NCBI RefSeq assembly: GCF_024700885.2
Contig: NZ_CP117016.1
Reading direction: 5' to 3' (one strand)
DNA length: 64,000 nt
Source: Escherichia coli
GTDB lineage: Bacteria > Pseudomonadota > Gammaproteobacteria > Enterobacterales > Enterobacteriaceae
Shown piece by piece: positions 2,368 through 12,283 of this stretch; positions within the stretch are counted from its first letter, which is position 1, and the number at the start of each line of letters is the position of its first letter. The notes under the pieces were generated by a model, which did not search any database, was not told where the DNA came from, and saw only the letters and a list, made by a program, of their open reading frames with translations. The translations under genes were made by a program, and so were the position numbers.

Positions 2368-5300
2368 ATGAGCGGAAAACCGGCGGCGCGTCAGGGCGAC
2401 ATGACGCAGTATGGCGGTAGCATTGTTCAGGGTTCAGCCGGGGTACGTATTGGTGCCCCCACCGGCGTGGCCTGTTCGGTGTGCCCCGGCGGGGTGACGT
2501 CCGGCCATCCGGTCAATCCGCTGCTCGGTGCGAAGGTCCTTCCCGGCGAAACCGACCTTGCCCTGCCCGGCCCGCTGCCGTTCATCCTCTCCCGCACCTA
2601 CAGCAGTTACCGGACAAAAACGCCCGCGCCGGTGGGGAGCCTCGGCCCCGGCTGGAAAATGCCCGCGGATATCCGCTTACAGCTGCGCGATAACACACTG
2701 ATACTCAGTGATAACGGCGGCAGGAGCCTGTATTTTGAGCACCTGTTTCCCGGTGAGGACGGTTACAGCCGCAGCGAGTCACTCTGGCTGGTGCGCGGCG
2801 GCGTGGCGAAACTGGATGAAGGTCACCGGCTGGCCGCACTCTGGCAGGCACTGCCGGAAGAGCTTCGCCTGAGTCCGCATCGTTATCTGGCGACGAACAG
2901 TCCGCAGGGGCCGTGGTGGGTACTCGGCTGGTGTGAGCAGGTGCCGGAGGCGGATGAGGTGCTGCCCGCGCCGCTGCCGCCGTACCGGGTACTGACCGGG
3001 CTGGTGGACCGCTTCGGGCGCACACAGACGTTTCACCGTGAGGCTGGCGGCGAAATCACCGGCGTGACGGATGGCGCAGGCCGTCACTTCCGGCTGGTAC
3101 TGACCACGCAGGCGCAGCGGGCAGAAGAAGCCCGGCAGCAGGCCATTTCCGGCGGGACGGAACCGTCCGCTTTTCCTGATACCCTGCCGGGTTACACCGA
3201 ATATGGCCGGGACAACGGCATCCGTCTGTCTGCCGTGTGGCTGACACACGACCCGGAATATCCGGACAACCTGCCAGCCGCGCCGCTGGTACGCTATGGC
3301 TGGACGCCGCGTGGCGAACTGGCGGCGGTGTATGACCGCAGCAATACACAGGTGCGCAGCTTTACTTACGATGATAAATACCGGGGCCGGATGGTGGCGC
3401 ACCGTCACACGGGCCGACCGGAAATCCGTTACCGTTACGACAGTGACGGGCGGGTGACAGAACAGCTAAACCCGGCGGGCTTAAGCTACACGTATCAGTA
3501 TGAGAAAGACCGCATCACCATCACCGACAGCCTGGACCGCCGTGAAGTCCTGCACACGCAGGGCGAAGGCGGGCTGAAGCGGGTGGTGAAAAAGGAACAC
3601 GCGGACGGCAGCGTCATGCAGAGTCAGTTTGACGCGGTGGGCAGGCTTAAGGCACAGACGGATGCCGCAGGCCGGACGACTGAGTACAGCCCGGATGTGG
3701 TGACGGGACTCATCACGCGCATCACCACACCGGATGGCAGGGCATCGGCATTTTACTATAACCACCACAACCAGTTAACGTCAGCCACCGGGACTGACGG
3801 GCTGGAGTTGCGCCGGGAATATGATGAATCCGGCCGTCTGATTCAGGAAACCGCACACAACGGCGATATCACCCGCTACCGTTATGATAATCCACACAGT
3901 GACTTACCCTGCGCAACGGAAGATGCCACCGGCAGCCGGAAAACCATGACATGGAGCCGTTACGGTCAGTTGCTGACCGTCACTGACTGTTCCGGTTATG
4001 TAACCCGTTATGACCATGACCGTTTTGGTCAGGTGACGGCGGTGCACCGCGAGGAAGGGCTGAGTCAGTACCGCGCATACGACAGCCGTGGACAGTTAAT
4101 TGCGGTGAAAGACACGCAGGGCCATGAAACGCGGTATGAATACAACGCCGCCGGTGACCTGACCGCCGTCATTGCCCCGGACGGCAGCAGAAACGGGACA
4201 CAGTACGATGCGTGGGGAAAGGCCATCCGTACCACGCAGGGCGGTCTGACGCGCAGTATGGAATACGATGCTGCCGGACGGGTCATCCGCCTGACCAGTG
4301 AAAACGGCAGCCACACCACCTTCCGTTACGATGTACTTGACCGGCTGATACAGGAAACCGGCTTTGACGGCCGCACACAGCGTTATCACCACGACCTGAC
4401 CGGCAAACTTATCCGCAGCGAGGATGAGGGGCTGGTCACCCACTGGCACTATGACGAAGCAGACCGCATCACGCACCGCACCGTGAAGGGTGAACCGGCA
4501 GAGCAGTGGCAGTATGATGAACGCGGCTGGCTGACACAAATCAGCCATCTCAGCGAAGGCCACCGGGTGACGGTGCATTACGGGTATGATGAGAAAGGCC
4601 GCCTGACCGGTGAGCGCCAGACGGTGCATCACCCGCAGACGGAAGCACTGCTCTGGCAGCATGAAACCAGACACGCTTACAACGCGCAGGGACTGGCGAA
4701 CCGCTGTATACCGGACAGCCTGCCCGCCGTGGAATGGCTGACTTACGGCAGCGGCTGGCTGGCAGGCATGAAACTCGGCGACACACCGCTGGTGGAGTAT
4801 ACCCGCGACCGCCTGCACCGGGAAACGCTGCGCAGCTTCGGCCGTTATGAACTCACCACCGCTTATACCTCTGCCGGGCAGTTACAGAGCCAGCACCTGA
4901 ACAGCCTGCAGTATGACCGCGATTACACCTGGAACGACAACGGCGAACTCATCCGCATCAGCAGCCCGCGACAGACCCGGAGTTACAGCTACAGCGACTC
5001 CGGCAGGCTGACCGGCGTCCACACCACCACCTCAAATCTGGATATCCGCATCCCGTATGCCACGGACCCGGCAGGCAACCGCCTGCCCGACCCGGAGCTG
5101 CACCCGGACATCACCCTCAGCATGTGGCCGGATAACCGTATCGCCCGTGACGCGCACTATCTTTACCGGTATGACCGTCACGGCAGACTGACGGAGAAAA
5201 CCGACCTCATCCCGGAAGGGGTTATCCGCACGGACGATGAGCGGACTCACCAGTACCATTACGACAGTCAGCACCGGCTGGTGCACTACACGCGGACACA

Positions 5301-6555
5301 ATATGCAGAGCCGCTGGTCGAAAGTCGCTATCTTTACGACCCGCTGGGCCGCAGGGTGGCAAAACGGGTATGGCGGCGTGAACGGGACCTGACGGGCTGG
5401 ATGTCGCTGTCACGGAAACCGGAAGTGACCTGGTACGGCTGGGACGGCGACCGGCTGACCACGATACAGAACGACAGAACCCGCATCCAGACGGTTTATC
5501 AGCCGGGGAGCTTCACGCCACTCATCAGAGTTGAAACCGCCACCGGTGAGCTGGCGAAAACGCAGCGCCGCAGCCTGGCGGATGCGCTTCAGCAGTCCGG
5601 CGGCGAAGACGGTGGCAGTGTGGTGTTCCCGCCGGTGCTGGTGCAGATGCTCGACCGGCTGGAAAGTGAAATCCTGGCTGACCGGGTGAGTGAGGAAAGC
5701 CGCCGCTGGCTGGCATCGTGCGGCCTGACGGTGGAGCAGATACAAAACCAGATGGACCCGGTGTACACGCCGGCGCGAAAAATCCACCTGTACCACTGCG
5801 ACCATCGCGGCCTGCCGCTGGCGCTTGTCAGCACGGAAGGGGCAACAGAATGGTGCGCAGAATACGATGAATGGGGCAACCTGCTGAATGAAGAGAACCC
5901 GCACCAGCTGCAGCAGCTCATCCGCCTGCCGGGTCAGCAGTATGATGAGGAGTCAGGCCTGTATTACAACCGCCACCGCTATTATGACCCGCTGCAGGGG
6001 CGGTATATCACTCAGGATCCGATTGGGCTGAAGGGGGGATGGAATTTTTATCAGTATCCGTTAAATCCGGTTCAGTATATAGATTCAATGGGACTGGCAT
6101 CTAAATATGGACACTTAAATAATGGCGGATATGGAGCGAGACCCAACAAACCGCCTACGCCCGATCCAAGTAAGTTGCCAGACATAGCGAAACAATTAAG
6201 ACTGCCATATCCTATTGACCAGGCCAGTAGTGCGCCTAATGTTTTCAAAACATTCTTCAGAGCATTAAGTCCTTACGATTACACACTGTATTGCAGGAAG
6301 TGGGTAAAACCCAATCTGACTTGTACGCCGCAGGATGATCCCCAGTATCCAGGGATGGAGACAAAGACAGCAAGTGATTACCTGCCACAGACAACTTGGC
6401 CAACAACTCAATTACCACCAGGATATACTTGTGCAGAACCCTATTTATTCCCAGACATTAATAAACCCGATGGGCCAGCAACAGCAGGGATAGATGATTT
6501 GGGTGAAATTTTAGCTAAAATGAAACAGAGAACATCGAGAGGAATAAGAAAATGA
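2368..6555 (+). CDS. rhsA: Rhs polymorphic toxin: PAAR-like N-terminus, YD-repeat core, variable C-terminal toxin tip
   Basis: 1395-aa ORF; N-terminal [17 protein letters not shown] (PAAR-like); many YD/RYxYD repeats; core ends with the DPIGL motif near nt 6016-6030, followed by an AT-rich ~175-codon tip of unrecognised family. Confidence 0.93.
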
Positions 6556-7121
6556 AAAGAGCTTTGTTCTTTTTGCTGATGATATTCGTTAGTTTTGGTG
6601 TTATAGCTAATTGCGAAACACAAGCTAAAGATCAAGATTGCTTTACCATTTTCACTAAGGGTACTATTTTTTCCGCGTTTCCTGTCTTAAATAATAAAAC
6701 CATGTGGAGATGGTATCAGAATGAGGACATAGGTGAGTATTATTGGCAAACAGAGCTTGGTATATGTAAAAATAACAAATTCACACCAAGCGGGGCGAGA
6801 CTCTTAATTCTCGTCGGATCACTACGCCTTAATGAAAATCATGCAACCAAAGGAACGTTGCAGGAGTTGCTAAATACAGCAGAAAAAACGGCGTTTCTCG
6901 GCGATCGGTTTAGAAGTTATATAAGAGCGGGTATCTATCAAAAAAAGAGCAGTGATCCAGCTCAGTTGTTGGCAGTCCTTGATAATTCAATCATGGTTAA
7001 ATATTTTAAAGATGAGAAGCCAACTTATGCTCGAATGACAGCACATCTCCCGAACAAAGATGAGTCTTACGAATGTTTAACAAAAGTACAGCATGAACTG
7101 CTTCGTAGTGAAGAAAAATAA
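6552..7121 (+). CDS. putative cognate Rhs immunity protein, secreted (N-terminal signal peptide)
   Basis: start codon overlaps the rhsA stop (ATGA at 6552-6555); GAGG RBS about 10 nt upstream; N-terminus [21 protein letters not shown] is signal-peptide-like; AT-rich like the rhsA tip. Confidence 0.6.
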
Positions 7122-7289
7122 AATCTCTTCCTGAGAAAATAAATTAACTATTCGAAAAAATATGTTCTTAATGGGTATCCAGGAACACCAGAAGGTCGAT
7201 TTGGAAAAATGGATTCCGATGGTAAGAATATCATATATTCTGAATGTAATGTTTTACCCACAACTTTTGAGATTCGATAGGTGTAGAGC

Positions 7290-7637
7290 ATGAGAAACTC
7301 ACTAATATTACTTATTATGATATTGTTTACAATATCACACTCAGTATTTGGAAAAGAAAATTCAGCGGAAATTTTAGTAAATAGTCGTGAAATGGCTTTG
7401 GAATTATCATATGTTTATATTAAATATATATACGGGAAAGAAAAAGCAGAATTTCAGAAACCATATAGTATTACAGATGACAATAATTGTTGGAAAATCG
7501 AGGGAAAACAACCGAAGACGTTAGGAGGAAATTTTACAATACTAATAGCGAAAAAAGATGGGCAAGCGTTGGATGTAATACACAAAATAATCCACTGTTC
7601 AGACGATTCAAATATTTTACCAAGGTGTGTTTCGTAA
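7290..7637 (+). CDS. small secreted hypothetical protein, possible orphan immunity protein
   Basis: 115-aa ORF with signal-peptide-like N-terminus MRNSLILLIMILFTISHSVFG; has a frameshifted paralog at 9240-9507; sits in the Rhs-associated AT-rich region. Confidence 0.5.
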   Translation: MRNSLILLIMILFTISHSVFGKENSAEILVNSREMALELSYVYIKYIYGKEKAEFQKPYSITDDNNCWKIEGKQPKTLGGNFTILIAKKDGQALDVIHKIIHCSDDSNILPRCVS

Positions 7638-7839
7638 CTATTTTGTGTACAATATGACTCTACATATCGACGAAAAAACCACTTGATTTGACAGGAACAC
7701 ATTCAAAAAAATTTCTTTTTCATTTCAGGAGCGATTTTCATCTGTTACTTGAAGTATCTGTGAGATTAAGTGACTCCCCCTAACGTCGTACTAAATAGTA
7801 ATTACTGGCCATACCGGGAGCAGTATTCGGCGCTTCCCA

Positions 7840-8080
7840 CATGCAGCAGAATAACCGCATCAGCGAAGATGTATTGTATTTTTACTATCACAATGTGTAC
7901 GGACGGTTTATGGAAAAGAATGAACATTAGATACGCGATGCGGCGGCAGGTTACACGGTTATCACTACGATAGCCAATACTGGCTGGTGCATTACCGCCG
8001 TGAACAATAGGACGCCGTACTGCTGGAAATTTCTTACCTTTATGACTCCCCGCGCCGCCGTATTGGGAAACGGGAAGCAA
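7840..8080 (+). pseudogene. decayed internal fragment of an Rhs core
   Basis: aligns by eye to rhsA nt ~5130-5370 (e.g. relic GYHYDSQYWLVHY and YLYDSPRRRIGKR vs rhs[14 protein letters not shown] and [13 protein letters not shown]); interrupted by stop codons; GC-rich patch inside an AT-rich region. Confidence 0.6.
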
Positions 8081-8654
8081 TCAAGATGAGGCTGATATAA
8101 TGTGCGGAATGCCTGAGTATTTTTAGAATAGGGGGGTAATATGTTTGATAGAATATATCTTGGTGATCGAGCAATAAAAAATTGAATTTGATTTATGGAG
8201 TAAACAAATTAGAATTCAGGTTAATTTAATCTCAAGGATAGCCTATGGTACAACAGAATGGAATTTTTATGATAATGAAGACTTAGAAGATGGTTATTTG
8301 GTATTTTCAGATGTTAGTTTCTTCAATATAACTCCTAATGGCTCTATTCCAGATGATTATATAATTTCAATAATTACAGATAATGTCAATGTTGAATATT
8401 TTGAATCAACTATAGTTGCTGTTGGTCAAATTCGAAACACAAATGTTGGTGACATTGATAATATTGGTGAATGTCAAATTTTCATCAGGTATAAAGACAG
8501 CTGGATTGAGAATAAACTCAAAGAAAAAATAATTGAATAACCATGTTATGTATAGACATTTTAGATGGAACGAACCAGAGGAAGGCATGCCTCCGACTTG
8601 GGTTATATGGGCACGGAGTTTTAGTGTAGTGAACTCAACGACGCAAACCGAATA

Positions 8655-8720
8655 ACCTGCCGCTGGCGCTTATCAGCACGTAAGGGACAACAGCGTAGTA
8701 CGTAGAATAATCCTACCCAC
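8655..8720 (+). pseudogene. short decayed relic of the Rhs core 3' end
   Basis: cctgccgctggcgcttatcagcacg is near-identical to rhsA 5811-5835 and to the yibJ copy at ~10669-10693; similarity decays downstream and is interrupted by stops. Confidence 0.5.
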
Positions 8721-8792
8721 GTAGTATGGACACAGGCCTAAGCGAGGTTCTGGTTTTCAAATTTTTCGGGAGTTAGATGATTGGAGGAACAG

Positions 8793-9158
8793 ATGATAAG
8801 AATCGCATTTTTAATAACCAATAAATTTCTTGAGATAGATAGTACCACTCTTGCTGGATATGATTTTAGCGGGATGAATCTACATCGTGCCACCCTCAAT
8901 GGTTATTGTCTTGATGGGGCGAAATTTGAAAAAACTCATTTAAGAAATGTAATGATTCAACATACATCAACTAGAAATGCTGTCTTTCGCAATGCGGCTC
9001 TGATGAATGCTATTCTGAATAACTCAGATTTCACTGGAAGTGATTGTAGTAATTCAAGGTCAATAGGTGAAAATTTTAAAGCAATAGATAATCATGGGAA
9101 AGATATAATAAATGGAAAAGGATTGCCTAATGTTTGCAAAATACATGACAACGTATAA
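8793..9158 (+). CDS. pentapeptide-repeat protein, hypothetical
   Basis: ORF with GGAGG RBS 5 nt upstream of ATG 8793 (the track ORF begins at an in-frame TTG at 8781); sequence shows pentapeptide-like periodicity (GMNLHRATLNGYCLDGAKFEKTHLRNV...AVFRNAALMNAILNNSDFTGSD). Confidence 0.5.
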   Translation: MIRIAFLITNKFLEIDSTTLAGYDFSGMNLHRATLNGYCLDGAKFEKTHLRNVMIQHTSTRNAVFRNAALMNAILNNSDFTGSDCSNSRSIGENFKAIDNHGKDIINGKGLPNVCKIHDNV

Positions 9159-9239
9159 GAAAATATTATTCAGAACCTATGTGATTGTATCTTTATTTTT
9201 ACATACAACACATGGGCGCAGTGTAATAATATTATTATA

Positions 9240-9507
9240 ATGCGCAAGTATGAAAGTGAGGGGAAATACACCGTTAGAAATTTGGTCAAAAATAAAGCTA
9301 TAGCATTGGAATTAGCTGAGATGTATGTTAAAAATCGTTATGGACATGATGCCGAAGAAGAAAAAAAAACCATACAAAATCATGGAATTACCAACAAGTT
9401 GGATTGTTGAAGGCACCATTGAATCAGACCAAATTGCTGGTAGGGTTTTTATTATAGAAATAGGCAAAAATGACGGGAGAATTCTAAATTTTGGCCACGG
9501 AAAATAA
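9240..9507 (+). pseudogene. frameshifted paralog of the 7290-7637 gene, interrupted in an A9 homopolymer
   Basis: frame A (9240-9410, MRKYESEGKYTVRNLVKNKAIALELAEMYVKNRYGHDAEEEKK) and frame B (9325-9507, ...PYKIMELPTSWIVEGTIESDQIAGRVFIIEIGKNDGRILNFGHGK) together align with the 7290 protein (SREMALELSYVYIKYIYGKEKAEFQKPYSITDDNNCWKIEG...ILIAKKDGQALDVIHKI); the frames meet at the A9 run 9361-9369; losing one A restores one ORF. Confidence 0.6.
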
Positions 9508-9611
9508 GTATGTAAGGATAAACAAACATCGTGTGTGCTGATGGCAGAGTAGGTGGAGGACTCCAGACAGTCAAACGATAGAAAAAGATAGTCTTTATGG
9601 AGGTTCCTGCA

Positions 9612-10454
9612 ATGTCGAATACATACCAGAAAAGAAAGGCAAGTAAAGAGTATGGTTTATACAATCAATGTAAGAAACTAAATGATGATGAATTATTTCG
9701 CTTACTTGATAATCGCAATTCATTGAAAAGGATTTCATCTGCCAGAGTATTGCAGCTAAGAGGTGGGCAAGACGCTGTTAGATTGGCAATTGAATTCTGC
9801 GCTGACAAAAATTATATCCGTAGAGATATAGGAGCATTTATACTCGGGCAAATAAAAGTTTGCAAAAAATGCGAAGATAGCGTTTTTAATATTTTAAAAA
9901 AGATGGCACTGAATGATAAAAGTGCTTGCGTTCGAGCTACAGCAATCGAGTCAACTGCTCAGCGATGCAAGAAAAACCCAATTTATTCACCTAAAATAGT
10001 AGAACAATCTCAAATTACTGCTTTTGATAAATCGGCTAATGTCAGACGTGCTACGGCATTTGCTATTTCTGTTATCAATGATAAAGAAACAATTCCACTA
10101 TTGATTAATCTGTTAAAAGATCCAAATGGAGATGTCAGAAACTGGGCCGCATTTGCAATAAATATCAATAAATATGATAATAGTGATATTAGGGATTATT
10201 TTGTGGAGATGCTTCAGGATAAAAATGAGGAAGTCCGTATTGAAGCAATAATCGGACTTTCCTACAGAAAAGATAAAAGGGTTTTATCTGTTTTATGCGA
10301 TGAGTTAAAAAAAAATACTGTTTATGATGATATCATTGAAGCTGCGGGTGAATTAGGTGATAAAACGCTACTTCCTGTTTTAGATACTATGTTGTACAAG
10401 TTTGATGACAATGAAATTATAACTTCCGTTATTGATAAGCTGAAGCGTTCATAG
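9612..10454 (+). CDS. yibA: HEAT-repeat protein
   Basis: N-terminus MSNTYQKRKASKEYGLYNQ at the internal ATG 9612 matches recalled YibA; repeated D/N-x-x-VR-x-x-A HEAT-like units; lies between Rhs modules. Confidence 0.8.
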   Translation: MSNTYQKRKASKEYGLYNQCKKLNDDELFRLLDNRNSLKRISSARVLQLRGGQDAVRLAIEFCADKNYIRRDIGAFILGQIKVCKKCEDSVFNILKKMALNDKSACVRATAIESTAQRCKKNPIYSPKIVEQSQITAFDKSANVRRATAFAISVINDKETIPLLINLLKDPNGDVRNWAAFAININKYDNSDIRDYFVEMLQDKNEEVRIEAIIGLSYRKDKRVLSVLCDELKKNTVYDDIIEAAGELGDKTLLPVLDTMLYKFDDNEIITSVIDKLKRS

Positions 10455-10495
10455 CGTGAGTTGCCTATGCACAGTGAGGTATTCCCGCCGGCACG

Positions 10496-11305
10496 GTGCA
10501 GATGCTCGACCGGCTGGAAAGTGAAATCCTGGCTGACCGGGTGAGTGAGGAAAGCCGACGCTGGCTGGCATCGTGCGGCCTGACGGTGGCGCAGATGCAA
10601 AACCAGATGGACCCGGTGTACACGCCGGCGCGAAAAATCCACCTGTACCACTGCGACCATCGCGGCCTGCCGCTGGTGCTTATCAGCACGGAAGGGGCAA
10701 CAGAATGGTGCGCAGAATACGATGAGTGGGGCAACCTGCTGAATGAAGAGAACCCGCACCAGCTGCAGGGGCGGTATATCACTCAGGATCCGATTGGACT
10801 GAAGGGGGGATGGAATTTTTATCAGTATCCGTTGAATCCGATAACTGATATTGACCCGTTGGGATTAGCGACCTGTTTATACAGCATAACTTTAGGTATG
10901 CTTTCATGCGTTTCAGATACGCCAAGTGATGATAATTCTTATGGTGTGCTTACTATTTCAGTCGCCTCTGGTAATAATGGTAATAATATGCAATGTAAAA
11001 ATAATCCTGGTTGTACACACTTACAAAATAGAGGCCCAATACCTCCAGGGGTATGGAGCTGGAATGTTAATGGTCCTGGAGCAACTAATAGAAAACCTAA
11101 TGGTATACGTTTAGTACCGTCAGCAAATACAGAAACGTATAATCGTGATGGATTTTTAACACATAGTTGTTTAAACGCTTTTGGTCCATCTTTAGGACCT
11201 CGATTCTGTTCCGAGGGTTGTATAACTGGTTCATCTAATGACATGCAAAAATTAAATGAGCTAATATTTTCAGAGCCAGATAGCACATTAACAGTGACGG
11301 ACTAG
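10496..11305 (+). CDS. yibJ: orphan Rhs C-terminal fragment (3' core plus alternative toxin tip) with L,D-transpeptidase-like motif
   Basis: nt ~10472-10840 are near-identical to the rhsA 3' core (5616-6070) including [18 protein letters not shown]; the tip then diverges; tip contains H-S-x14-S-E-G-C-I-T (His codon 11162-11164, Cys codon 11219-11221); symbol is positional only. Confidence 0.7.
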
Positions 11306-11309
11306 AAAT

Positions 11310-11705
11310 ATGGCAAGGTTATTAACAATTGTGCTTTTTTTCTCTATTTCTGCGAATGCAGTTACTGTAAACCAATTTCAGAGAGAGTTGGATTTGGCAG
11401 ACAAGGCAATATTATGGGCACTAATATCAGCCAGTACCCAAGAGGGACGAAAAGCGTGTTCACTTAGCTATTTTTCATGTAAAGCCGCAGAGGCTGAACT
11501 CGGACTGGCATATATGGCTGCTAATGATAACAAGGCATTTCTCACATCCTTATCTAGAATAATGATGTACAAAATAGATGCTGGACTTTCCGAATCCTAT
11601 ACATGCTATTTATTAAGCAAGGGAAAGATCATAAGACCATATCTGAAGAATCTAAATCCACACCAACTTGTCGCTGATTGCATTGAAACTGTAAATAAAA
11701 GATAA
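11310..11705 (+). CDS. putative immunity protein for the orphan Rhs tip, secreted
   Basis: starts 4 nt after the yibJ stop; N-terminus MARLLTIVLFFSISANA is signal-peptide-like; AT-rich. Confidence 0.55.
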   Translation: MARLLTIVLFFSISANAVTVNQFQRELDLADKAILWALISASTQEGRKACSLSYFSCKAAEAELGLAYMAANDNKAFLTSLSRIMMYKIDAGLSESYTCYLLSKGKIIRPYLKNLNPHQLVADCIETVNKR

Positions 11706-12283
11706 AAATAAAAAAATCATTGATATAGATTCAGTTAATATTTGCAATGATAATAAAAATATAAATTGGAGAGTTAATAGTACTATTGTAGCCATTGATG
11801 ATTCTATAAAATGCATCGATGAATAATAACTTAATTATATTTAAAAATATATTAATGACTCACTCTCCAGGAGTTTTTTAACTTAGTGTTATAATGAATA
11901 CGATAATTAAAAGTGAAGAGAAAAATAGTTGTATACATATATTACATGAACCTACATTGTGATCTATAAATTAAATATTTTTAAATGTGACTGTCATCCT
12001 TCAGATAATAAAGCCATCATCGCAATAGATGGAAAAGCACTCCTGCTCTTTTTTGATTAGAGCCGTGGCAGAGGAACAACTCATATCATCATTGCGATCT
12101 CGACAATGTATGGTCTGATCCTTCGGCAGATCAAGACGGATAAAAAATCCAATGAGTTCACACTCATCCCGAACTTCTTAACATAATGGATATTAACGAA
12201 AAATCATCGCAGCCAATGAAGTAATATGCAAAAATAATTAGTCCTTACAGGGAGCAAAGTTCCATAATCTCCCCCTTCCCTAC

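Follow-up and report, generated by a model that had tools for sequence, protein, structure and literature searches.

Two distantly related orphan Rhs immunity genes at the rhsA locus of Escherichia coli MLI114, one of them most probably a dead yhhH

The window (the whole 64,000-nucleotide stretch of DNA analysed here) covers the rhsA locus of E. coli MLI114, where two genes of the Imm-NTF2-2 family, referred to as copy A and copy B, lie downstream of a full-length rhs gene. We conclude, with a probability of about 0.9, that the pair represents distantly related orphan Rhs immunity genes and that copy B is a dead yhhH. The first-pass annotation had read them as duplicated immunity genes with different localization; this reading does not hold, as the two modules appear to have been acquired separately and copy B is leaderless only as a frameshifted pseudogene. 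Both genes are already present in the NCBI PGAP annotation as 'NTF2 fold immunity protein' (one frameshifted), and the family and its toxin partner have been known since 2012.

The gene order at the locus is yibF-rhs-...-yibA-yibH, with a GC content of about 0.6 in the main Rhs core and of 0.3-0.4 in the downstream array. Apart from the two immunity modules, the relevant features are

2368-6555, + strand: main Rhs core protein, 1395 aa (ORF; PGAP 'RHS element core protein', WP_001604939.1)
6552-7121, + strand: YbfC-like protein, 189 aa (ORF; PGAP; ortholog 'protein YbfC' in BL21 and O157)
7841-8073, + strand: decayed Rhs core fragment, unannotated, with in-frame stops (tblastn with the main Rhs protein)
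8181-8540, + strand: DUF6258 family gene (PGAP)
8656-8709, + strand: short Rhs core scrap, a recombination scar (blastn, 85% identity to window 5811-5864 and 10666-10719)
8781-9071, + strand: pentapeptide-repeat gene fragment (NCBIfam pentapeptide families, E = 5e-7; PGAP pseudogene fragments)
9597-10454, + strand: yibA, HEAT-repeat protein (PGAP; blastn block alignment)

The main Rhs protein carries its own C-terminal toxin, and the array of orphan modules follows downstream. The start of the YbfC-like gene overlaps the Rhs stop (ATGA) and its product has an N-terminal hydrophobic leader (Kyte-Doolittle score 3.22); the gene probably encodes the cognate immunity protein for the toxin of the main Rhs protein. 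Residues 919-1000 of the main Rhs protein match 7841-8073 with 57% identity over 42 aa and a stop codon inside (tblastn, E = 6e-11). The DUF6258 gene accompanies copy A in other strains. Copy B forms one block with the 5' part of yibA, and in K-12, too, yhhH is followed by a yibA-like pseudogene. Orphan toxin-immunity modules are well known from the regions behind rhs and cdi genes. The present array is a typical example with no notable difference, consisting of AT-rich cassettes of a toxin end and an immunity gene together with Rhs core scraps, all on the same strand and many of them decayed. Both modules considered here are co-oriented downstream of the full rhs gene, contain a truncated toxin part without a start and are flanked by Rhs core scraps. 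An NCBIfam scan that also took in the DUF6258 protein assigned no family to copy A, copy B or the YbfC-like protein, and scanning for promoters and terminators gave nothing informative (12 promoter-like sites versus 13.3 expected; no terminators).

The protein similarity claimed for 7290-7637 and 9240-9507 is real and significant after frame correction: BLASTP aligned copy A with the frame-corrected translation at 47.4 bits and E = 2e-13, with 27 of 72 residues identical (38% over 72 aa), and in a shuffle control the alignment of the two copies scored 48.5 bits against a mean of 7.1 and a maximum of 22.7 for 200 shuffles. Both match Pfam Imm-NTF2-2 (PF15631), copy A with E = 1.1e-17 (model positions 1-67 of 68) and frame-corrected copy B with E = 1.1e-21 (model positions 1-68 of 68). 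The suspected likeness to small immunity domains of polymorphic toxin loci is therewith borne out, the family being Imm-NTF2-2 (YhhH/YbbC) at an Rhs locus. Imm-NTF2-2 was described as the partner of Tox-JAB-2/DUF4329 Rhs toxins, with conserved residues listed as 'Y, W' and a distribution stated as 'E. coli only' (Zhang et al., 2012; PMC3482391). The window genes share with those pairs the Pfam match, the conserved Y and W and the position directly 3' of DUF4329 toxin ends; the pairs are intact in L009, L010 and K-12, whereas in the window the toxins are stubs only. The Y and W are invariant in a six-sequence alignment that includes both copies, and Y48 and W68 are conserved at a level of at least 90% in an 84-sequence alignment. 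The family is far wider than 'E. coli only', with 1450 representatives at E <= 1e-3. An NTF2-like alpha+beta fold was found for Imm-NTF2-2, and this fold is cystatin/PepSY-like. A search of the PDB with the YhhH sequence returned nothing at E <= 1, and a literature search returned no experimental report on Imm-NTF2-2 or Tox-JAB-2.

The first module comprises

7143-7280, + strand: relic A, DUF4329/Tox-JAB-2 Rhs toxin end (INYSKK...TTFEIR and stop; DNA alignment to L009; weak Pfam match; BLASTP)
7290-7637, + strand: copy A, Imm-NTF2-2 gene, 115 aa, WP_001246151.1 (ORF; PGAP; Pfam)
7580-7585, + strand: site of a 2-bp (AC) deletion in an ACACAC run (alignment with BL21, O157 and L009; canonical 100-aa forms P0005 and P0007)

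Relic A consists of the last 45 codons of the toxin gene and the stop, without a start codon and without the HTH...SxxD motif region, and is directly preceded by an in-frame stop (7140-7142). Its match to Pfam DUF4329 is weak (model positions 86-111 of 116, E = 0.19) and was relied on only after DNA alignment to the intact toxin: window 7143-7709 aligns at 90.5% identity (569 bp) with the intact Rhs(DUF4329) 3' end and 100-aa immunity gene of L009. Relic A also matches the RhsB tail (BLASTP, E = 8e-5). In L009, 9 nt separate the end of the full Rhs-DUF4329 gene from the intact 100-aa gene, and the spacing in the window is identical. The signal-peptide-like N-terminus reported for copy A stands, the intact 115-aa ORF beginning MRN-LILLIMILFTI-SHSVFG/K (Kyte-Doolittle 3.34). 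Residues 1-21 (7290-7352) form the leader and residues 35-99 (7392-7586) the Pfam domain, while the last 17 residues result from a derived frameshift; in the structure model the leader is helical (2-19), the domain has a pLDDT of 96-98 and the tail one of 50-66. The motif end 'H.K' that had been ascribed to copy A is missing in the window, where the 2-bp deletion after His98 removes HTK and the stop and replaces the last two residues by a 17-residue tail (...HKIIHCSDDSNILPRCVS and stop). BL21, O157 and L009 all have the extra AC and end in VIHTK or VTHTK. The canonical 100-aa form, which stands beside a full Rhs-DUF4329 gene, has 82% protein identity to copy A and shares its leader and 9-nt spacer; compared with it, the window copy is 2 bp shorter after His98, ends in the low-confidence tail and has a toxin cut to 45 codons. 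In other strains the copy A block is also found at the rhsC and rhsB loci, and alleles have decayed elsewhere by loss of the start codon (BL21) or a premature stop (O157). With leader and domain kept, copy A could still protect against a foreign L009-type toxin.

The second module comprises

9072-9158, + strand: relic B, RhsB-type DUF4329 toxin end (...NFKAIDNHGKDIINGKGLPNVCKIHDNV and stop), last ~29 codons (blastn; tail comparison; K-12 coordinates)
9130-9507, + strand: copy B, yhhH-type Imm-NTF2-2 pseudogene (PGAP 'NTF2 fold immunity protein, frameshifted'; yhhH alignment; repair)
9188-9195, + strand: 4-bp deletion, TTTG lost between 9191 and 9192 (alignment to intact K-12 yhhH)
9361-9369, + strand: A9 homopolymer, second frameshift of copy B (alignment; strain comparison)

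Window 9072-9958 is 91.2% identical to the K-12 rhsB 3' end, yhhH and HEAT-repeat gene (blastn), and copy B is ~88% identical in DNA to K-12 yhhH across the whole 386-bp query, including the part upstream of 9240. This second copy does not start at the mature region, as had been supposed: the locus begins at 9130, a YhhH-type leader-coding part (MFAKYMTTYKKILFRTYVIVSLF...) is still present at 9130-9205, and ATG 9240 is the internal Met40 of YhhH. Copy B seems leaderless because the 4-bp deletion, which sits in the hydrophobic core of the leader, has pushed this recognizable leader out of frame with the domain; the same deletion is found in strains 1190, WCHEC96200 and PCN033. The frame break suspected within 9240-9507 was located in the A-run at 9361-9369, which reads A9 in the window, whereas most near-identical strains have A8 and K-12 yhhH has GAAGAAGAAAAA. 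Dropping one A reopens an 88-aa frame from 9240, and repair of both lesions (+4 bp, -1 A) yields a 126-aa protein that, with its leader, is colinear with YhhH.

As in K-12, where YhhH (127 aa) overlaps the rhsB 3' end, the DUF4329 tail overlaps the start of copy B by 29 nt and a yibA-like HEAT-repeat gene lies downstream. Relative to K-12 yhhH, copy B has lost 4 bp in the leader and a further 3 bp in frame, and in this strain it carries the extra A; because of these changes it is a pseudogene, and its reading frame is broken by two frameshifts in the window and by one in A8 strains. Relative to K-12 rhsB, only about 29 toxin codons remain, joined in frame to the pentapeptide-repeat fragment. 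PGAP calls a pseudogene in six of the six records inspected with this orphan copy, A8 strains included. Mature copy B is 89% identical to YhhH in protein, with 9 synonymous and 10 non-synonymous codon differences, numbers that do not give the time at which constraint was lost. One record (H24), listing 'NTF2 fold immunity protein (x2)', was considered as a strain with both copies intact and rejected, its copy B being frameshifted; in H150-type records, which exceed the window by two bases, the difference proved to be a GAA-repeat expansion and not a longer A-run.

Leaders were judged heuristically from charge, hydrophobicity and the -3/-1 pattern, the score being the maximum Kyte-Doolittle value over 10 residues. 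Copy A scored 3.34 (VFG/K) and YhhH 2.75 (TWA/Q), while the copy B ORF from 9240 scored 1.35 and has no such region. An N-terminal hydrophobic leader is present in 90 of 124 family representatives, and export therefore appears to be the norm in the Imm-NTF2-2 family. Several 'leaderless' database entries are decay products or start-codon miscalls; one candidate for a naturally leaderless member (P0018) was rejected when a leader with a TTG start was found in frame.

Three other explanations were weighed. Two copies of the same family on the same strand, ~1.6 kb apart, would suit a local tandem duplication followed by divergence and loss of one leader, yet their protein identity is only 38% and no significant DNA similarity exists between the modules (best blastn E = 0.11). 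Each copy follows its own DUF4329 toxin 3' relic (the stubs at 7143-7280 and 9072-9158 match the toxin ends in L009 and K-12, respectively), which argues for separate acquisition and against local duplication. Since the nearest relatives also lie elsewhere (copy A-L009 90.5%, copy B-yhhH 88-91%) and the rhsC locus of BL21 and O157 has copy A but no copy B, we give such a duplication practically no credence. It is highly improbable, too, that copy B is a working leaderless cytoplasmic paralogue translated by re-initiation at ATG 9240, with poly-A slippage in A9 strains. The arrangement has some appeal: the leader remnant forms a 36-codon ORF from ATG 9130, with AAGGA 9 nt before it, whose TAA (9238-9240) overlaps ATG 9240 by one base (TAATG); most strains, with A8 or a PCN033-type GAA repeat, have an uninterrupted 88-89-aa ORF; and the mature part has kept its identity to YhhH. 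However, the A9 run in the window breaks the ORF after 42 of 88 ancestral codons and leaves a 56-aa ORF with its last 14 residues out of frame; no Shine-Dalgarno sequence precedes 9240; and the TAATG overlap can be due to chance because alternative-frame stops are frequent in DNA of 30-35% GC. A cytoplasmic copy would moreover be misplaced for the role presumed for a family whose members appear to be exported as a rule, and neighbouring orphan genes, copy A alleles included, have decayed alike. In A8 strains a residual 88-aa leaderless product may, judging from the reading frame, be made from ATG 9240. That the 4-bp deletion re-targeted copy B, with termination-reinitiation and sliding on the A8/A9 lysine run giving a leaderless cytoplasmic NTF2-2 domain, is hardly to be expected; if true, it would be a natural move of an immunity protein by frameshift from periplasm to cytoplasm.

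An assembly error in the homopolymer, with the real strain being A8 and the leader deletion its sole frameshift, is less easily set aside, although we consider it unlikely. Among the 45 matches listed, A9 occurs in only two genomes, while the run is one base shorter in 22 at 99.3% identity and in further rows of slightly lower identity, and the A-run is the only difference over 5.4 kb between the window and 13 other genomes. Against this, A9 is present in two separate assemblies (MLI114 and E700025) and the tract is truly polymorphic among lineages (A5 with G interruptions, A8, GAA expansion). Copy B is a pseudogene under either allele, and the main conclusion is unchanged.

For two separately acquired orphan modules, the course of events would be as follows. 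The region 7143-9507 is best seen as part of a trail of displaced ('orphan') toxin-immunity modules behind the main rhs gene, in which two like modules, each a DUF4329/Tox-JAB-2 3' stub with an Imm-NTF2-2 gene, were presumably left behind at different times. The intact forms of both immunity proteins have a predicted N-terminal Sec-type leader; export would bring them into the periplasm, and there they presumably bind and neutralize the incoming toxin domain. Copy B is, on this view, a dead yhhH: the 4-bp deletion parts leader from domain, and in this strain the extra A breaks the domain too.

The finding is an ordinary one that carries little weight as a discovery, and its value is mainly corrective: the pairing of a signal-peptide copy with one that lacks it is only apparent and comes from translating a pseudogene from an internal Met. 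Of possible specialist interest is the relation of this leader-bearing immunity family to its toxin, since Tox-JAB-2/DUF4329 is labelled 'RNase' in the literature on in silico grounds. A mostly leader-bearing family with a cystatin/PepSY-like fold fits poorly with that label and suggests that Tox-JAB-2/DUF4329 is a periplasmic, possibly peptidase-type, toxin.

The two small genes, copy A (7290–7637) and copy B (9130–9507), lie in the rhsA locus, where yibF is followed by a 1395-residue RHS core protein (2368–6555), a series of short genes, yibA, more Rhs fragments, yibH, yibI and mtlA. The 5.4 kb around the copies are identical in E. coli MLI114 (NZ_CP117013.1) and near-identical in many E. 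coli chromosomes. The G+C content is ∼60% in the Rhs core and 30–40% throughout 6000–10400, the usual pattern for an Rhs core versus its toxin/immunity cassettes. Copy A is a real open reading frame of 115 residues. The segment 9240–9507 is split over two frames at a run of nine adenines (9361–9369; allele A9), and removal of one A gives an 88-residue translation that aligns with copy A with 27 identities in 72 positions (47.4 bits, E = 2 × 10−13). In a shuffle control, the real score was 48.5 bits, whereas 200 shuffles averaged 7.1 and reached at most 22.7. Both proteins match essentially the whole Pfam model Imm-NTF2-2 (PF15631), with E values of 1.1 × 10−17 (copy A) and 1.1 × 10−21 (copy B), and all testable defining features of the family were found in both. 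The similarity noticed in the first-pass annotation is therefore genuine, and its guess of an immunity domain was borne out. In the list of Zhang et al. (2012; PMC3482391), Imm-NTF2-2 serves as immunity partner for Tox-JAB-2 (DUF4329 in Pfam).

Copy B is not an intact gene. PGAP annotates it as a pseudogene (`NTF2 fold immunity protein, frameshifted') starting at 9130, 110 nt upstream of the start assumed at first, and the segment 9125–9510 (386 bp) is ∼88% identical along its entire length to K-12 yhhH, which encodes 127 residues and overlaps the 3′ terminus of rhsB. Three differences separate the two: a 4 bp deletion (TTTG, between 9191 and 9192) in the hydrophobic core of the leader, an in-frame 3 bp deletion at 9236/9237 and the replacement of GAAGAAGAAAAA by a run of eight adenines (A8), to which the window adds one more. 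With the 4 bp restored and one A removed, copy B reads MFAKYMTTYKKILFRTYVIVSLFIFTYNTWAQCNNIIIMRKYESEGKY… and is colinear with YhhH (MSAEFMVICKKILFRNCVIVSLFVFTYNTWAQCNNNIKIMRKYESEGKY…), so that the ATG at 9240 corresponds to Met40 of YhhH. The second copy had been thought to lack a signal peptide; its leader sequence is in fact still present at 9130–9205 in another frame, and 9240 is an internal methionine. The 4 bp deletion is common to every orphan copy inspected (strain 1190, WCHEC96200 and PCN033), and those of KY1497 and TUM14759 are likewise flagged as frameshifted. In the complete-genome set, the orphan type (≥95% identity to copy B) occurs in 271 genomes and yhhH proper (∼88%) in about 2700. 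Judged from its sequence, copy B is yhhH in a degraded form.

In the YhhH-type domain, the loop rich in Glu and Lys (9355–9370) is a mutational hotspot of small size: it reads GAAGAAGAAAAA in K-12, has a GAA-repeat expansion (EEEEEK) in PCN033 and carries A8 in most orphans near-identical to the window. Of the 45 matches listed, just two (MLI114 and E700025) have A9, 22 genomes at 99.3% identity have A8 and four have a GAA-repeat expansion instead. It is possible, although we consider it unlikely, that A9 is a homopolymer assembly error; the verdict on copy B would be unchanged, and the PGAP frameshift flag persists in strains in which the run is one base shorter. Far less probable is the production of a leaderless copy B by translational re-initiation at 9240: the leader remnant, 36 codons long, does end in a TAA that overlaps this ATG and AAGGA precedes the ATG at 9130, but a Shine–Dalgarno sequence is absent before 9240, A9 breaks the 9240 reading frame in the window and the cytoplasm would be the wrong place for a normally exported protein.

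Each copy is preceded by the 3′ end of its own toxin gene. Homology to the K-12 rhsB–yhhH block (91% identity) begins at 9072 and extends to 9958, inside yibA, which identifies 9072–9158 as the ∼29 codons at the end of an RhsB-type toxin gene. This stub ends in …NFKAIDNHGKDIINGKGLPNVCKIHDNV (…NFKAIDNHGKEITNRKGLPNVCRVHGNM in K-12) and overlaps the original start of copy B by 29 nt, as in K-12. It forms the end of a 125-residue open reading frame (8781–9158), an in-frame chimera with a pentapeptide-repeat fragment; the PGAP label on 9072–9158, `pentapeptide repeat-containing protein, missing N-terminus', looks like a mislabelled toxin tail. Upstream of copy A, the segment 7143–7709 is 90.5% identical to the toxin-end and immunity block of contig L009, and 7143–7280 therefore represents the last 45 codons and stop of a DUF4329 toxin (INYSKK…TTFEIR). 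In contigs L009 and L010 a 100-residue gene lies 9 nt past a full Rhs protein with a C-terminal DUF4329 domain, and in the window the same 9 nt spacer separates the stub from the ATG at 7290. Taken alone, this stub scores only weakly in Pfam (E = 0.19, against the C-terminal portion of DUF4329) and matches the RhsB tail over a short stretch (E = 8 × 10−5); the DNA alignment is what decides its identity. Both stubs begin 3′ of the HTH…SxxD motif visible in intact toxins and hence cannot be active.

The copies had also been taken for duplicated genes. A DNA comparison of the two modules gave no significant match (best E = 0.11), the proteins are only 38% identical and each has its own toxin stub, with separate matches at 7143–7709 and 9072–9958, which contradicts local duplication. 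The block that contains copy A (a YbfC-like gene, the toxin stub, the NTF2 gene and a DUF6258 gene) is present in 847 of 5426 genomes; in BL21(DE3) and O157:H7 it is found at the rhsC locus without copy B, and in KY1497 both occur at the rhsB locus. Both orphan modules in the window consist of a DUF4329 toxin end and an Imm-NTF2-2 gene, copy A being open with a leader and copy B broken. Two remnants of Rhs core lie between the immunity genes:

7841–8073, decayed Rhs-core fragment between copy A and the DUF6258 gene; unannotated, matches Rhs residues 919–1000 and contains in-frame stops

8656–8709, Rhs-core scrap between the two modules

At Rhs loci, layered debris is the expected outcome where recombination lets new toxin/immunity cassettes take the place of older ones, and these scraps would fit such layering. 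A further orphan module lies 3′ of yibA (10473–11826), with an Rhs core fragment, a toxin open reading frame with a tlde1 domain (10898–11305) and a frameshifted Imm57 immunity gene. The YbfC-like protein (6552–7121) that follows the main Rhs toxin has a strong N-terminal hydrophobic leader and no family in Pfam or NCBIfam; its start codon and the stop codon of rhs overlap (ATGA). No terminator-like site was detected between the rhs operon and the immunity genes, and promoter-like sites in the locus occur only at the chance rate, so that expression would depend on read-through.

Copy A belongs to a sister subfamily and is slightly damaged. Its canonical 100-residue relatives (P0005 and P0007 in the protein search) have a leader and end in …HTK. 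Compared with BL21, O157 and L009, the window has lost one AC of the ACACAC run after His98, and copy A consequently ends in …VIHKIIHCSDDSNILPRCVS instead of …VIHTK. Intact YhhH also stops directly past the domain (GHGK), which indicates that the shorter end is the ancestral state. The AlphaFold model gives the domain pLDDT values of 96–98, and the added tail has low confidence (66 and then 50). Other alleles have a start codon changed from ATG to ACG (BL21; L006, 7001–7637) or a TAA stop just past the leader (O157:H7; L007, 7001–7637). PGAP calls versions of 66, 75 and 90 residues from internal starts even where the full frame is open (KY1497; L008). The 115-residue allele is common (455 member sequences in its cluster) and may still work. 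PGAP annotates both window copies correctly, and the finding is in this sense already known.

The family was given as `E. coli only' by Zhang et al. (2012; PMC3482391). A profile search with the mature domain returned 1450 cluster representatives at 50% identity (E ≤ 10−3), some of them multi-domain proteins in which as many as 14 stretches match, and the family thus extends well beyond E. coli. By a simple heuristic hydrophobicity rule, 124 of the top representatives fall into three classes: 90 with a hydrophobic leader before the domain (a lipobox-like motif is present in 20), 19 that begin at the domain and 15 with some different extension at the N-terminus. Among the 19, at least two result from gene decay in E. 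coli: P0010, the BL21 allele without a start codon, and P0033, the Met40 reading frame of copy B. For another apparently leaderless relative, P0018, the gene caller chose an internal ATG; counted from an in-frame TTG 12 nt past the toxin stop, the protein has a typical leader (RSLSLSLSIYLILSQQIFA; L016, 352–663, and L017, 457–768), and some `leaderless' database entries are therefore start-codon miscalls.

Intact family members would be exported through Sec and, when the Rhs protein of a sibling attacks the cell, would neutralize its toxin domain in the periplasm. Copy A may still protect against foreign toxins of the L009 type; copy B would give no protection in this strain. The literature searched contains solely in silico statements on Imm-NTF2-2 and Tox-JAB-2 proteins, and Tox-JAB-2/DUF4329 is labelled there as an RNase by in silico inference only. 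In the sister clade Tox-JAB-1, the corresponding immunity protein (Imm65) carries both a signal peptide and a lipobox (Zhang et al., 2012; PMC3482391). The Imm-NTF2-2 fold resembles cystatin and PepSY domains, folds that include protease inhibitors and propeptides; together with the HxH…SxxD motif of the toxin, this resemblance points to a possible peptidase activity. The predominance of leaders argues for a periplasmic toxin target, and a periplasmic, possibly peptidase-type DUF4329 toxin may fit better than an RNase, which we offer as a lead rather than a result.
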